The position numbers and the translations under genes are program-made. Shown here one piece after another: positions 8,225-62,179 of a stretch of DNA of 64,000 bases. This DNA comes from a virus (taxonomy: Duplodnaviria > Heunggongvirae > Uroviricota > Caudoviricetes), in IMG/VR virus record IMGVR_UViG_3300037087_000772, positions 1 to 64,000 of that record. One strand, given 5' to 3'. The notes beneath the pieces were generated by a model. The model was given only the letters and a program-made list of their open reading frames with translations, did not search any database and was not told the DNA's origin. How positions within the stretch are numbered: position 1 is the stretch's first letter; the number at the start of each line of letters is the position of its first letter.

Positions 8225-8358
8225 AATATTGATATATTATTTTCTATTATGTATATATTAAAACAATTTTTAAAACTTTTTTCGGCTTCCGATGATATAA
8301 TATTCAACCAGTAAGCCGAAAATGGTGAAAAGAGTAGGCAATTTTAATACACAAATTA

Positions 8359-10686
8359 ATGGCTACAGTTTTATTTTATTTGATGATAGCAGGTATTTCT
8401 ATAGCTGTCATCTTTCTTATTGTCCTGATTTGGAGTTCAATCCTTATTGTGGGTGGTAAAGAAATTAAAGTATTGGAAAGACGCTGGATGGGTGCACAGA
8501 TGCCGAAAAACAGAGTTTTTGCCATGAGTAAACAAATTGGAGTTCAAGCAAGGGCAATGGGTCCGGGTTTGTACTTCTTATTCCCTTTCATTTATAAAAG
8601 AAAGAAACAGGATTTCACAGTTATTGGTACAAATGAAATCGGTTTAGTTGTTTCATCGGATGGAGATCCTGTTCCATCTGGGAAAATTTTCGCTAAACCA
8701 ATTGAATGTAATTTGTTTCAAGACGGAGAATTATTCTTAACCAATGGTGGTGAAAAAGGGCCTCAAATTCCTATCATACCACCGGGACTCTATCGTATTA
8801 ATCCTTTACTTTTTAATGTAAAGACAGTTCCAGTTACAGTTATTGCTGAGAATCAAATTGGTATAGTAGAATCTATTGATGGACAACCAGTACCATCTGG
8901 TCGTATTTTTGGTAAAGTAGTTGATTGTGATTTATTTCAAGATGCCGCCTCTTTTTTAAAGAATGGTGGTGAGAAAGGTCCTCAAATTCAAATTTTACCT
9001 CCGGGTAACTATCGTATCAATACTCTTTTATTTAAAGTAACACCAGTTCCAATCACAGTTATTGAAAAAGGACAGATTGGTATCGTAACCGCTCAAGACG
9101 GTAAACCTATCAGTGATGGTCGTTTATTAGCCAAATATATTGATGGTCAAAAGAATTTTGAAGATGGAAAAACTTTCTTAGATAACGGTGGAGAAAAAGG
9201 GCCTCAGACTACCATATTACTTCCGGGTAAATATCGTATCAATGTGGCTTTATTCAAAGTCGAAATTAAAGAAACTATTGTTATTCCAGATAAAAAAATT
9301 GGTATCGTTGTCGCTCGTGATGGTAAACCTTTACCTGAAACTGAATATGTAGCTAAACCAATTGAAGGACATAATAATTTCCAAGATTTAACAACATTCT
9401 TAAAGAATGGTGGTCAACGTGGACCTCAATTTGATGTGTTGAAGCCGGGTACATACTATATCAATCCGTTGATGTTTAGTGTCGAACTTGATGATGTCGC
9501 TGTAATTGAGCGTGGTCAAGTGGCCGTTCTTGTATCAAATGTCGGAGATGAACCACCTCAGGTAAAAGAAATGGTTGATGATGTTGCAAGAGCTGAGAAA
9601 GAAAAGGAATCTTCCCCAATTATTACACCAAGTGCCGAAGGAGTTCAAGACGATAGTGTTACAGCAGGTGGAATCGAAAAAAGATTGGATATCGGAATCG
9701 AAAGATATGTAGTTCCTAAGGGATTCAGAGGTATTCAACAGGAAGTAGCTGGTCCGGGGATTTATTACTTGAACCGTAGAGCTTATATCGCATATGTGGT
9801 TGATACCACTAACATTACAATTGATTGGGATGATTCGAAAGAAACTCGTTTTGATCCATTGAAAGTTGTATCTCATGATGGTTTTGAAATCAGTGTATCC
9901 GTTAAGGTTGTTATCAGGATTCGTCCTGACCAAGCACCTTATATGGTAGCAAAAATTGGTTCAATCCAGAACTTAGTCGAGCATGTCATCCACCCGATGA
10001 TTGACTCGTCATTCCGTAATCAAGCATCTTCAACATCAGCCATGGCATTCATGCAAAATCGTCATGAAGAACAACAGAAGGCTGAAGATAGAGCTCGTCA
10101 GGAATTGGTGAAATACCATGTCGAATTAGTAAGTGTTCTTATTTGTCAAATTCAGTTACCAGAGGATTTGATGAAAACTCAGACTGAAAGAATTATCGCT
10201 CAACAGCAACAGGCAATGTACTTTGAACAACAGAAAGCTCAACAATCTCGTATCTCTATGGAGAAAACTACAGCCGAAGCTAATAAACAACCAGAATTGG
10301 TTGCTTCTGAAATTGATGTAAAAGTGGCCGAGAATGTCAAATTAAAGACAATTAAACTCGCTGAAGGAGAAGGTCAATCTACAAAATTGAAGAAAGAAGG
10401 AGAGGCCGCTGGTATTGAGGCCATTGGTAAAGCTGAGGGGGTAGCCATCGAGGCAAAGATGGGAGCCACTGCAGAAGGTTACGAAAAACAAAAATCAGCT
10501 ATTGGTCAAGAAGGAGTTATTCAAGTTCAAGTCGCTGAAAAAATAGCACAAGGAGGTGTGAAAATAGTACCTGATACATTGGTAACAAACGGTGATAGTG
10601 GATTACTGTCAGGTGTTCTTACTAAACTAATGACACCAAATCAGACACCAAATCAGAAAACTCTTCCACCAACTACATCAAAATAA
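8359..10686 (+). CDS. membrane-anchored SPFH/flotillin-like (band 7) protein with 4-5 internal ~95-aa tandem repeats
   Basis: 775 aa. N-terminal TM segment. Repeated units IGxVxSxDGxPxPSGxIFxKxxxCxLFQDxxxFLxNGGEKGPQxxIxPPGxYRINxLLFxV occur ×4-5. The C-terminal 250 aa is flotillin-like and Ala/Glu-rich (AEGEGQSTKLKKEGEAAGIEAIGKAEG). Followed by a terminator. Confidence 0.6.
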   Translation: MATVLFYLMIAGISIAVIFLIVLIWSSILIVGGKEIKVLERRWMGAQMPKNRVFAMSKQIGVQARAMGPGLYFLFPFIYKRKKQDFTVIGTNEIGLVVSSDGDPVPSGKIFAKPIECNLFQDGELFLTNGGEKGPQIPIIPPGLYRINPLLFNVKTVPVTVIAENQIGIVESIDGQPVPSGRIFGKVVDCDLFQDAASFLKNGGEKGPQIQILPPGNYRINTLLFKVTPVPITVIEKGQIGIVTAQDGKPISDGRLLAKYIDGQKNFEDGKTFLDNGGEKGPQTTILLPGKYRINVALFKVEIKETIVIPDKKIGIVVARDGKPLPETEYVAKPIEGHNNFQDLTTFLKNGGQRGPQFDVLKPGTYYINPLMFSVELDDVAVIERGQVAVLVSNVGDEPPQVKEMVDDVARAEKEKESSPIITPSAEGVQDDSVTAGGIEKRLDIGIERYVVPKGFRGIQQEVAGPGIYYLNRRAYIAYVVDTTNITIDWDDSKETRFDPLKVVSHDGFEISVSVKVVIRIRPDQAPYMVAKIGSIQNLVEHVIHPMIDSSFRNQASSTSAMAFMQNRHEEQQKAEDRARQELVKYHVELVSVLICQIQLPEDLMKTQTERIIAQQQQAMYFEQQKAQQSRISMEKTTAEANKQPELVASEIDVKVAENVKLKTIKLAEGEGQSTKLKKEGEAAGIEAIGKAEGVAIEAKMGATAEGYEKQKSAIGQEGVIQVQVAEKIAQGGVKIVPDTLVTNGDSGLLSGVLTKLMTPNQTPNQKTLPPTTSK

Positions 10687-10769
10687 AGTAGTCATTACTT
10701 TGTCAAGGAGAGGTGTAGAGTTCGCTTCCGTTAAAACGACTCCACAAACGGGTGAAACGGGATTTAAGA

Positions 10770-10802
10770 CCCCATTTAGAGAAATCTGAATGGGGTTTTT
10801 TA
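10770..10802 (+). terminator. rho-independent terminator after the SPFH gene
   Basis: Hairpin CCCCATTtagagaaatctgAATGGGG followed by a T7 run. Confidence 0.6.
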
Positions 10803-11603
10803 TTTGAAATTATTACAAGATCTGATACAAGAACTACAGCTGGGAATAAATACTCCGTAAAAAACTTTGTTGAATTCTTTAAATCTTGTTGTGAATCCAC
10901 CATCAACATAAGTATCTATTGAATCGTAATTCCATATACCAAATCCACATTTGAAAATATCACCTTTTTCGTCAATGAGAAACGAATATTGTTTTTCTGG
11001 ATTATGACAATAACATCCGAAAGTTCCATAAAAACCGAATCCACTTAATTCAGCTCTACCAACAGGAACTAAATTTTCTTCTTTTTCTTCGTGTTTAGGA
11101 GTATTGAAAAGGATATTATTTTCTTTGAGGACTTTGAGAGCTTTATCAACATTTTTCATGTTATGCCATTCATCTTTTGAGATACTGACATAACAGTTTT
11201 TGAATTTGGTGAGATATTCAGCGAATTCAGGACATCCTTCAATCCAATCTCCATTGGATACAATACGAACCAAAGGAACTGAGGGAATAATTAAATCCAG
11301 AATTTTTTTCCAATGTGGATTACAAAAAATTTCACCACCCATGAGATTAACCATTTGTACTTCGTTGTTTTTAAGAAAAGCGGAAACTTTTTTGGCCATT
11401 TTTATGGTCATGTGGGTATCCATCTTGGGAGAACATTCATAACAACAATGTCCACAGGATTGAGTACATTTTAAAGTAATTCTGACGGTAGCGTGGAGTT
11501 TCCTTGGACAAGTATCTTTTACGGAACATTCTTCACAATTACAAGTTCCCGGACCATTCGGCCCTTTACAAACTTTTTCCAGACAGATATCACAAGGTTT
11601 CAT
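10800..11603 (-). CDS. radical SAM domain protein with N-terminal Cys-rich extension
   Basis: 267 aa. CTQSCGHCC is a CxxxCxxC motif; NLMGGEIFCNP is a GGE motif; many additional Cys residues at both termini. Confidence 0.5.
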   Translation of the reverse strand: MKPCDICLEKVCKGPNGPGTCNCEECSVKDTCPRKLHATVRITLKCTQSCGHCCYECSPKMDTHMTIKMAKKVSAFLKNNEVQMVNLMGGEIFCNPHWKKILDLIIPSVPLVRIVSNGDWIEGCPEFAEYLTKFKNCYVSISKDEWHNMKNVDKALKVLKENNILFNTPKHEEKEENLVPVGRAELSGFGFYGTFGCYCHNPEKQYSFLIDEKGDIFKCGFGIWNYDSIDTYVDGGFTTRFKEFNKVFYGVFIPSCSSCIRSCNNFK

Positions 11604-61375: not shown

Positions 61376-61757
61376 CTGAAAGAATCCAATCTAATTTGAG
61401 CCTTCTTTCTTCATTAGTCATATAAGGTAGTTTGTCTTGATAATCAGCCAACATATTTGGTTTTTCTGGATCATCATTAATTACTCCTTCAGACTCCATC
61501 AAATATAATTTATTGTCATTAATTTTATAAAAAGGTGTCTTTTGGGGTGATTCTCTGTATATCATTTCGGTACAACCAAAAATAGAACCAATAGGATGTT
61601 CTTCTCGGATACTATGTGAACAAGATATATTTAATGTCACATCTAAATCCTTACCATTCAATTTTTGTCCACCAAGAACACGAACACGAACTTTCTTATC
61701 TTTTTTCCTGCTACCATTTTCTTTTTCGTAACAAGTTTTAACATAATAATAAGCCAT
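61353..61757 (-). CDS. hypothetical protein (occupies the dsbA-like position upstream of rnh)
   Basis: 134-aa ORF. Confidence 0.35.
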   Translation of the reverse strand: MAYYYVKTCYEKENGSRKKDKKVRVRVLGGQKLNGKDLDVTLNISCSHSIREEHPIGSIFGCTEMIYRESPQKTPFYKINDNKLYLMESEGVINDDPEKPNMLADYQDKLPYMTNEERRLKLDWILSDEDIPLT

Positions 61758-61818
61758 ATCTCTGATTTTTTAATAAAGTTAAAAAAAAAATTCGAATAAA
61801 AAAATTAAAAGATTAGAT

Positions 61819-62130
61819 TTATATCATATAAGTTACTTTATCAAAACGAGGAAGAACAAGAGGTTGATTGTTTTCATCAAGCCCCATATTCACTTCATAA
61901 GTATAATAAATAGTGACTGAATTTAATTTTTCTTTTTTAACTGGTTCACTACCATCTTCCGTTAATAGAGTTTCAGTTTCATAATTTAATTCAACACCCG
62001 GAATCTCACCAATCAAAGAATGTAAATCATTTTTAATTTGATTCGTATTTAAATTTCTTTCACTCAGGTCATATTGACTTGAAAAATAATTATTTATTTG
62101 CATTTTTTTGAAATTAGCTATTTCATCCAT
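61819..62130 (-). CDS. hypothetical protein
   Basis: 103-aa ORF; promoter motif at 62154..62163. Confidence 0.35.
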   Translation of the reverse strand: MDEIANFKKMQINNYFSSQYDLSERNLNTNQIKNDLHSLIGEIPGVELNYETETLLTEDGSEPVKKEKLNSVTIYYTYEVNMGLDENNQPLVLPRFDKVTYMI

Positions 62131-62179
62131 TTTTTGAAAGATTTATTTTGACTTATATATTAAAACTAATGAGATCAGT

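Follow-up and report, generated by a model that had tools for sequence, protein, structure and literature searches.

An 11-base promoter-like box and a gp55-like sigma factor in a 64-kb window of a Mahaphage-clade genome

We examined a 64-kb stretch of viral DNA (positions 1 to 64,000 of IMG/VR record IMGVR_UViG_3300037087_000772, class Caudoviricetes; hereafter the window), in which an 11-base box, TTAATATATAA, recurs upstream of start codons on both strands. Our analysis indicates, with a probability of roughly 0.7, that this box is the promoter of a phage-specific, most likely late, class of genes in a ~736-kb Bacteroidetes phage of the "Mahaphage" clade, and that it is read by the phage's own gp55-like sigma factor, whose gene lies in the window. 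A first-pass annotation of this DNA had proposed a phage-specific promoter analogous to the late promoter of phage T4. We infer the same from a compact A/T box that lacks a -35 element, occurs on both strands, precedes homologues of T4 gp23, gp20, gp21 and gp4, and is kept in related genomes.

The window is phage DNA of 29% G+C. One of its proteins is present with identical sequence on a 736,551-bp contig, which puts the phage genome at ~736 kb; the motif counts and protein scans reported here refer to the 64-kb window. Its nearest database relatives are 634–735-kb "uncultured phage" genomes (LR745206 and LR756500–LR756504), which were assigned to the Mahaphage clade with Bacteroidetes as predicted hosts (PMC7162821). 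More remote relatives are the Prevotella Lak phages, Tenacibaculum phage pT24 and Sphingomonas phage PAU. At the nucleotide level, megablast of 20 kb of the window against phage records found only short stretches of weak similarity, to uncultured phages of 735 kb and 635 kb. For comparison we used three syntenic contigs (L005, L006 and L008), whose gp55-like proteins are 86%, 75% and ~66% identical to that of the window, together with L001 (LR756501), L002 (LR745206), Lak-A1 (L003; MK250016, positions 214123–254413) and pT24 (L004).

The box stands upstream of genes far more often than expected

TTAATATATAA outnumbers every other 11-mer in the window, with 13 exact copies, 5 on the plus strand and 8 on the minus strand; Markov models of order 0 to 5 predict 0.6–1.3 copies, about 0.7. 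The intergenic DNA (~3.8 kb, 23% G+C) alone holds 10 copies, whereas 2000 dinucleotide-preserving shuffles of the same DNA averaged 0.14 copies and never exceeded 2. Twelve of the 13 exact copies lie at most 65 nucleotides (nt) upstream of a start codon on the same strand, a zone to which 5.3% of positions belong (P ~7e-15), and the thirteenth (33546–33556) joins them once the start of its gene is corrected. All 13 are oriented towards a same-strand start codon, 6–62 nt downstream. The first-pass annotation had made its proposal depend on motif frequency judged together with orientation and distance, and on that measure the box stands well above chance.

An unsupervised search for 8-mers enriched in the 70 nt upstream of genes returned only sub-words of the box; of the 32 occurrences of AATATATA, 18 were upstream under the initial gene model (P = 8e-16), and correcting the starts raised this number to 19 (P = 3e-17). 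Similarly, a weight-matrix scan yielded 17 strong sites scoring at least 14.9, all 17 upstream of genes, with the next best site at 12.6. Beyond the exact copies we found six variants, five with one mismatch and one with a TA insertion, including those before the major capsid, portal and prohead protease genes, so that the box, exact or variant, precedes ~20 genes (Table 1). No copy was found in convergent gaps. Two divergent gaps (51775–51940 and 57310–57424) each contain two back-to-back copies, one beside each gene, and the box does not precede every gene but is confined to transcription-unit starts and internal restarts.

All 11 sites listed in the first-pass annotation were recovered to within 1 nt and on the strand of the downstream gene, two of them (8251–8261 and 21425–21435) ending in C rather than A. 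That list had missed four exact copies, at 16985–16995 (minus strand), 28880–28890 (plus), 46242–46252 (plus) and 51837–51847 (minus), and a one-mismatch copy at 20488–20498 (plus). The degenerate forms that it had noted before the protease, portal and capsid genes were also found, as TGAATATATATAA, TTAATATAAAATAATATATAGG and TAAATATATAA, respectively. The capsid variant overlaps a perfect T4-type TATAAATA contained within TATATAAATA (43617–43626, 23 nt before the ATG).

Table 1. Boxes, T4-type genes and second-class promoter elements in the window
Feature	Positions	Strand	Context
Exact box TTAATATATAA	13982..13992	-	19 nt before ATG of J-domain-like gene 13612-13962
Exact box	16985..16995	-	6 nt before ATG (3 nt before TTG) of gene 16076-16981
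Exact box	28880..28890	+	overlaps last codons of gene 28006-28890; 7 nt before ATG of 28898-29482
Exact box	33546..33556	-	16 nt before ATG at 33529, gene 32210-33529
Exact box	46242..46252	+	19 nt before gene 46272-46616; kept in L005
Exact box	49854..49864	-	overlaps last codons of gp55-like gene; 15 nt before gp4-like gene 49320-49838; kept in L005 and L006
Exact box	51837..51847	-	62 nt before 429-aa gene 50485-51774
Exact box	51909..51919	+	21 nt before gene 51941-52276; divergent gap shared with the 51837 copy, the two back-to-back
Exact box	52931..52941	-	54 nt before gene 52619-52876
Exact box	57336..57346	-	26 nt before 855-aa gene 54742-57309; kept in L005 and L006
Exact box	57389..57399	+	25 nt before gene 57425-58531; top score in weight-matrix scan
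Exact box	58597..58607	+	45 nt before TTG start and 90 nt before first ATG of gene 58653-58859
Exact box	62153..62163	-	22 nt before gene 61819-62130
One-mismatch box TTAATATATAC	8251..8261	-	26 nt before gene 7403-8224
One-mismatch box CTAATATATAA	20488..20498	+	overlaps end of gene 19923-20498; 16 nt before gene 20515-20847
One-mismatch box TTAATATATAC	21425..21435	+	21 nt before gene 21457-22203
Variant box TAAATATATAA	43620..43630	-	26 nt before major capsid gene 41764-43593; variant kept in L005 and L006
Degenerate box TGAATATATATAA	46178..46190	-	23 nt before protease/scaffold gene 43698-46154
Degenerate double box TTAATATAAAATAATATATAGG	48470..48491	-	portal gene 46613-48427; TTAATATAAAA at 53 nt, second partial box at 42 nt
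gp23-type major capsid protein	41764-43593	-	homology to T4 late gene
Prohead protease fusion (protease/scaffold, gp21-like)	43698-46154	-	homology to T4 late gene
gp20-type portal	46613-48427	-	homology to T4 late gene
gp4-like head-completion protein	49320-49838	-	homology to T4 late gene
Putative gp55-like late sigma factor gene, 126 aa	49854..50234	-	predicted region-2 fold at residues 9-100, disordered tail
TAnnTTTG(TAG) class	5351-5419, 7054-7103, 11604-11653, 58860-58943, 59469-59515, 59777-59824, 61758-61818		AATTTTTTTATT then ~15 nt

Anatomy of the box and its spacing to start codons

Alignment of the sites limited conservation to about 11 bases: a T, then TAATATATA, then an A. Positions -45 to -2 are unconserved, with no conserved -35 element, and downstream an A is found at positions 3–7 after the box in 12–16 of 19 sites. 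The idea that the box belongs to a longer repeat or mobile element was rejected, since conservation ends at ~11 nt.

In the main group of sites, the distance from the end of the box to the start codon is 15, 16, 16, 19, 19, 21, 21, 22, 23, 25, 26, 26, 26 and 26 nt, with outliers at 6, 7, 45, 53, 54 and 62 nt. The 15–27 nt spacing proposed in the first-pass annotation therefore describes most sites, but as a mode rather than a rule. Both the 15–26 nt group and the two sites at 6–7 nt are compatible with a box centred near -10 of the transcript start, and a transcript from the box at 16985–16995 may be leaderless.

At three genes (19923–20498, 28006–28890 and 49854–50234) the box of the next gene is embedded in the last codons, and as a result their products end N-I-stop (AAT ATA TAA). 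As one of these three is the gp55-like gene, the C-terminal residues of the gp55-like family are doubly constrained.

The box also bears on gene starts, as the first-pass annotation had claimed for the copy that it placed at 33547. The minus-strand open reading frame (ORF) 32210–33919 has 569 codons, the first 130 of which are low-complexity and antisense to the plus-strand gene 33585–33860, which encodes a 91-aa protein with a signal-peptide-like N-terminus. Because these 130 codons are the antisense shadow of that gene, and an ATG lies 16 nt after the box, we place the true start at 33529 and regard the 569-codon ORF as over-extended by 130 codons. A tblastn search of the 569-aa ORF against related loci gave no matches, and the start was judged from the window sequence itself.

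Several sites have features of their own. The box at 13982–13992 is flanked by a perfect 13-bp inverted repeat, AAATCCTTTTTCG / CGAAAAAGGATTT (13969–13981 / 14003–14015), which could fold into a hairpin or cruciform with the box in its loop. Between the box at 58597–58607 and gene 58653–58859 lies a host-type element, TATTTTTG. Orthologues of gene 57425–58531 carry M16 peptidase domains. A 62-nt leader separates the box at 51837–51847 from the 429-aa gene and shows strong conservation across five genomes (the window, L005, L006, L008 and L001); it contains a small hairpin and then a T-run after the box, as well as an invariant AAATGTAAAAGAT at 51799–51811 (minus strand), in which a start codon is directly followed by a stop. 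This leader may be regulatory.

A minimal gp55-like sigma factor is encoded beside the head genes

The first-pass annotation had pointed to late sigma and co-activator genes resembling T4 gp55 and gp33 as the ones to look for. A gp55-like sigma is indeed encoded in the window, immediately upstream of the gp4-like head-completion gene, whereas no gp33 homologue was found among the window proteins. The 126-aa product of ORF 49854–50234 has no Pfam or PHROG match, and its family carries no name in the Pfam, PHROG and source annotations that we consulted. We scanned 1.8 billion cluster representatives and collected 823 relatives at E ≤ 0.001. A 73-sequence profile of this family matched T4 gp55 (7d7c_F) in the Protein Data Bank (PDB) at E = 1.1e-7, with the next matches at E ~1, and hhalign of the family against T4 gp55 gave 96% probability (E = 4e-9).

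The predicted structure agrees with this assignment. An AlphaFold model of the protein (pLDDT 81) contains four helices at residues 9–100 with pLDDT >90. Among PDB structures, Foldseek ranked T4 gp55 from the late-promoter open complex first (7d7c_F, probability 1.00, TM 0.69), followed almost exclusively by sigma region-2 domains. In T4, the base-pocket residues of gp55 are N13, L54, R57, F86, H95, Y97 and T99, of which F86, Y97 and T99 line pockets holding flipped promoter bases (PMC7892883). In our family alignments F86 corresponds to an invariant F72, Y97 to Y83 (at least 90% conserved) and T99 to T/S85; opposite L54 and R57 the family has L and K, respectively, and N13 and H95 are unconserved. 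Residues 101–126 are disordered (pLDDT <55), yet they contain the conserved pattern ISLDSxNDGxGFxNI. This tail, ISLDSCNDGEGFFNI in the window, is conserved in the family, and its ISLDS...GFFNI aligns with the C-terminal SLDFLYEAND of T4 gp55, a clamp-binding epitope carried on a variable linker (PMC2988020). Sequence profile and predicted fold together identify the ORF as a gp55 homologue.

Many family members (P0076, P0096, P0103, P0110 and others) reach 200–350 aa, their C-terminal sigma domain being preceded by an N-terminal extension of ~110–200 residues. The gp55-like gene itself has no TTAATATATAA box upstream of it within the window. The 250-nt gap upstream of it contains, after a terminator-like hairpin, a palindrome, GACATATAT-N6-ATATATGTC, at 50373–50396 (minus strand), with a comparable palindrome in L005; it could be an operator for the late sigma gene.

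The box is conserved in relatives, and more distant phages use a T4-like variant

Boxes are found at orthologous positions in relatives before the 855-aa, M16 peptidase-like, 429-aa, gp4-like and 114-aa genes. In two intergenic regions aligned with L005 and L006, the boxes form invariant islands while the flanks diverge. At the place of the protease-gene box L006 carries TGAATATATAA. Furthermore, AATATATA ranks first or close to first among the words enriched upstream of genes in L005, L006, L002 and L001. Judged from these genomes, box and sigma are conserved together across the branch of Mahaphages with genomes above 630 kb.

The remoter relatives gave a different word. For Lak-A1 we called genes by treating TAG as a sense codon. 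The 8-mer most enriched upstream of these genes is AATAAATA, with 10 of 16 occurrences there (P = 5e-11), and ATAAATA lies 18–45 nt before 15 ATG start codons, 14 of them within 18–33 nt. The top upstream word in pT24 is ATAAATAT. We found no published description of either box. Both phages encode a member of the gp55-like family and belong to the same Mahaphage-related lineage, but their boxes are T4-like. The spacing between box and start in Lak is ~5–7 nt longer than in the window, and some Lak sites read AATAAATATATAAA; on these grounds we tentatively match ATAAATA to the 5' half of the 11-mer, a correspondence that the 18–33 nt spacing fits and that suggests one homologous element. A separate T4-like ATAAATA class within the window itself was considered and rejected for want of upstream enrichment.

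The sigma homologues differ between the two groups as well. After a conserved Y-F-T, phages with the AATATATA box have E-I/V-F-K-R-G, whereas Lak, pT24 and T4 have a segment ending in N-G or N-A. This segment possibly covaries with box specificity. We tentatively extend this to a further proposal, to which we give slightly less than even odds: in the Mahaphage branch above 630 kb, the late programme would be driven by a stripped-down gp55, consisting of region 2 and a tether tail without the helix-loop-helix of the T4 protein, that co-evolved with a lengthened box, TTAATATATAA, replacing ATAAATA, with a change in the sigma helix behind the pocket residues tracking the box.

A second promoter class resembles host promoters

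For the genes without the box, the first-pass annotation had invoked sigma-70-like early promoters. This was not borne out: a classical promoter and terminator scan showed no enrichment, with 121 matches to TTGACA and TATAAT (16–18 nt spacer) in positions 44001–64000 compared with 130 ± 12.6 in shuffles. Instead, several gaps contain TAnnTTTG, often as TTTGTAG, with AATTTTTTTATT ~15 nt further upstream. This class precedes genes for translation initiation factor IF3, an exonuclease operon, NMN-adenylyltransferase-like and efflux genes, and others. Fourteen of 101 TAnnTTTG matches lie at most 80 nt upstream of a start (P = 0.006), and ATTTTTTTATT is, after the box, among the most over-represented 11-mers, with 11 copies against 2.7 expected.

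Published work on Bacteroides describes primary-sigma promoters with TTTG at -33 and TAnnTTTG at -7, and we take the second class in the window to be of this type. The elements ascribed to sigma-70 are therefore better read as Bacteroidetes-type. The TTAATATATAA box, found in the same window, is not of the Bacteroidetes primary-sigma type, since it has neither a TTTG element nor a conserved upstream partner.

Proposed mechanism and comparison with known systems

In the mechanism that we propose, the host RNA polymerase core would bind the phage's 126-aa gp55-family sigma (49854–50234, minus strand). As this protein is a sigma region-2-like domain alone, it would recognise one A/T box of -10 type and make no -35 contact. 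The A-rich DNA directly downstream would be opened and transcription would begin a few bases after the box, giving short A-rich leaders of ~10–25 nt, and messages almost devoid of a leader where the spacing is 6–7 nt (two sites). The conserved tail beginning SLD probably serves, as it does in T4, to tether the sigma to an activator, be it a sliding clamp or a different one. Non-structural, presumably early genes would use host-type Bacteroidetes promoters (TAnnTTTG after a T-run). Such a system would represent T4-type late transcription in derived form; the use of the box by the gp55-like protein with the host polymerase, the start sites, the late timing and the clamp dependence are predictions.

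The likeness to T4, in which TATAAATA at -10 is served by gp55, gp33 and the gp45 clamp, extends to a single short A/T-only box without a -35 element and with A/T-rich DNA downstream, to use in both polarities and before capsid, portal, protease and head-completion genes, and to a region-2-like gp55-family sigma in which three of the T4 pocket residues (F86, Y97 and T99) are conserved and a flexible linker leads to a C-terminal tail beginning SLD (PMC2988020; PMC7892883). The differences are a consensus of 11 bases (TTAATATATAA) rather than 8 (TATAAATA), a sigma of 126 rather than 185 aa that lacks the helix-loop-helix, a Bacteroidetes-type host polymerase, and no gp33 or gp45 homologue among the window proteins. 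Small lineage shifts of late consensuses are known from in-silico predictions in the T4-related phages KVP40, 44RR, S-PM2 and Aeh1, the last with a changed 5' end (PMC2988020). Those consensuses, like ours, were predicted from recurrence upstream of late genes in phages encoding gp55. Their boxes, however, stay within one or two positions of TATAAATA, whereas the box described here is longer and has an alternating TATATA core. The promoters of the multisubunit polymerases of phiKZ and AR9 are also short, A/T-rich single elements in very large phage genomes; unlike in those phages, with their split beta/beta' subunits, no polymerase subunit homologues were found among the window proteins, and the combination of T4-type morphogenesis genes with a gp55-type sigma points to use of the host polymerase.

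Alternative explanations

Several observations weigh against a late promoter read by the gp55-like protein. Single-sequence searches with the 126-aa protein returned nothing useful (phmmer against PDB; PHROGs at E ≤ 10), and a narrow 23-sequence profile reached gp55 only at a non-significant E = 0.15, with an hhalign probability of 15%; significant similarity emerged once the family alignment was widened. The T4 helix-loop-helix segment (residues ~120–165) has no counterpart: the window protein, which ends at residue 126, shows no helix after residue 100, and the segment is missing from all aligned Mahaphage homologues. Neither gp33 nor gp45 had a PHROG match among the window proteins, and tblastn of T4 gp45 against phages found T4-like phages, with no Mahaphage record among the matches listed. 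The capsid, portal and protease genes carry degenerate boxes only, and most perfect copies precede unknown or non-structural genes, such as those for the J-domain protein and the M16 peptidase-like protein. Finally, the consensus is neither TATAAATA nor a one-position variant of it; TATAAATA is contained in the capsid promoter only, and ATAAATA is not enriched in the window, with 4 of 63 occurrences upstream of genes (P = 0.39).

The main rival to a gp55-like reader is another phage factor encoded elsewhere. The box would then be a genuine phage promoter read by a phage sigma, a phage RNA polymerase or a middle-class activator in the remaining 670 kb, with the gp55-like protein serving a weaker box. 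The preponderance of perfect copies before non-virion genes, the deviant boxes of the virion genes, the perfect T4-type TATAAATA in the capsid promoter and the use of ATAAATA by relatives with the same sigma family all fit this explanation, and as 64 of ~736 kb were examined, the remaining ~670 kb could encode another sigma factor or an RNA polymerase. We nevertheless consider it unlikely. Lacking upstream enrichment, ATAAATA offers no second candidate box for the gp55-like protein in the window, and no RNA polymerase subunit or other sigma factor was found among its ~100 proteins (PHROG for all, Pfam for the ten largest). Moreover, a single-element architecture is what a region-2-only protein leads one to expect, and the spacing offset between the Lak ATAAATA and our box fits one homologous element.

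It is much less probable that the box is a strong -10-like element of a primary or alternative sigma of the host, marking ordinary and possibly early promoters. In favour of this, the A/T-rich box looks like an extended -10 element of TATA type, and some sites have TTTG a few bases upstream, for example TTTTGATTTAATATATAA at 57389. However, the predicted hosts of the clade are Bacteroidetes, whose primary sigma reads TTTG/TAnnTTTG, and in the window TAnnTTTG forms a separate class before different genes; the box has no conserved upstream element, and the sigma-70 consensus is unenriched.

We assign an equally low likelihood to the box acting in RNA or as an operator, whether as a translation enhancer, an RNA processing site or a repressor or activator site. 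Translation in Bacteroidetes favours A-rich leaders, many copies lie at a fairly fixed 15–26 nt from the start codon, and one sits in the loop of the 13-bp inverted repeat, as such a role might suggest. Against this, the spacing varies from 6 to at least 62 nt, the box marks transcription-unit heads or internal restarts rather than each gene, an invariant 11-mer is atypical of a ribosome-binding signal, and in divergent gaps each gene has its own copy. A chance origin in intergenic DNA, where TA-rich words are common, is refuted by the shuffles, by the correct orientation of every copy and by the conservation of orthologous sites in other genomes.

Other features of the window

Besides the head genes, the window contains genes for IF3, a hybrid histidine kinase and an N-terminal portion of a family-B DNA polymerase, together with many genes of unknown function; a scan for tRNA genes found none. 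The polymerase gene (34085–35560, minus strand, 491 aa) comprises the exonuclease and the N-terminal polymerase part only, with no adjacent C-terminal part. In pT24 (L004, 11322–15501) the polymerase is annotated as two ORFs with two small genes between them. A match to the Rfam DUF805b RNA (RF02914; 44 bits, gathering score 35.6) lies at 8306–8340 on the plus strand, directly upstream of an SPFH/Band-7 gene (8359–10686), in the same divergent gap as the box at 8251–8261.

About ten small proteins carry a K/R-L-x-x-I-L-N/D-D/E peptide at or near the C-terminus, for example KLNDILND, RLDEILD and KLEKILND. Their genes lie at 415–624, 1719–1937, 1930–2154, 3252–3776, 29479–30985 (five consecutive genes) and 39465–39851. 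The peptide resembles in character the acidic and hydrophobic clamp-binding tails of T4 (SLDFLYEAND), and it could be a common docking or sorting tail or a mere feature of a paralogue family.

Discussion

In the literature we found no description of promoters or of a gp55 homologue in Lak or Mahaphage genomes. The class of mechanism is already known; what is new is the box and a minimal member of the gp55 family in megaphages. To our knowledge, no phage genomes exceed those of the Mahaphage type in size, and no such phage has been grown in culture. The findings are of use mainly as a handle on the timing of the hundreds of genes in these uncultivated megaphages, and for the minimal gp55-family member that they provide.

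A late box together with a TAnnTTTG class would allow unknown genes to be sorted into temporal classes from sequence alone, and the box corrects gene starts, as at 33529. Naming the gp55-like family of 823 representatives would carry the T4 late-transcription paradigm to Bacteroidetes phages and provide a minimal sigma for structural and specificity studies. If the more tentative proposal of a stripped-down gp55 with a rewritten box is also true, these phages would offer a natural series of sigma and promoter specificity switches on a Bacteroidetes polymerase, and the early and late gene classes of uncultivated megaphages would become readable by sequence alone.

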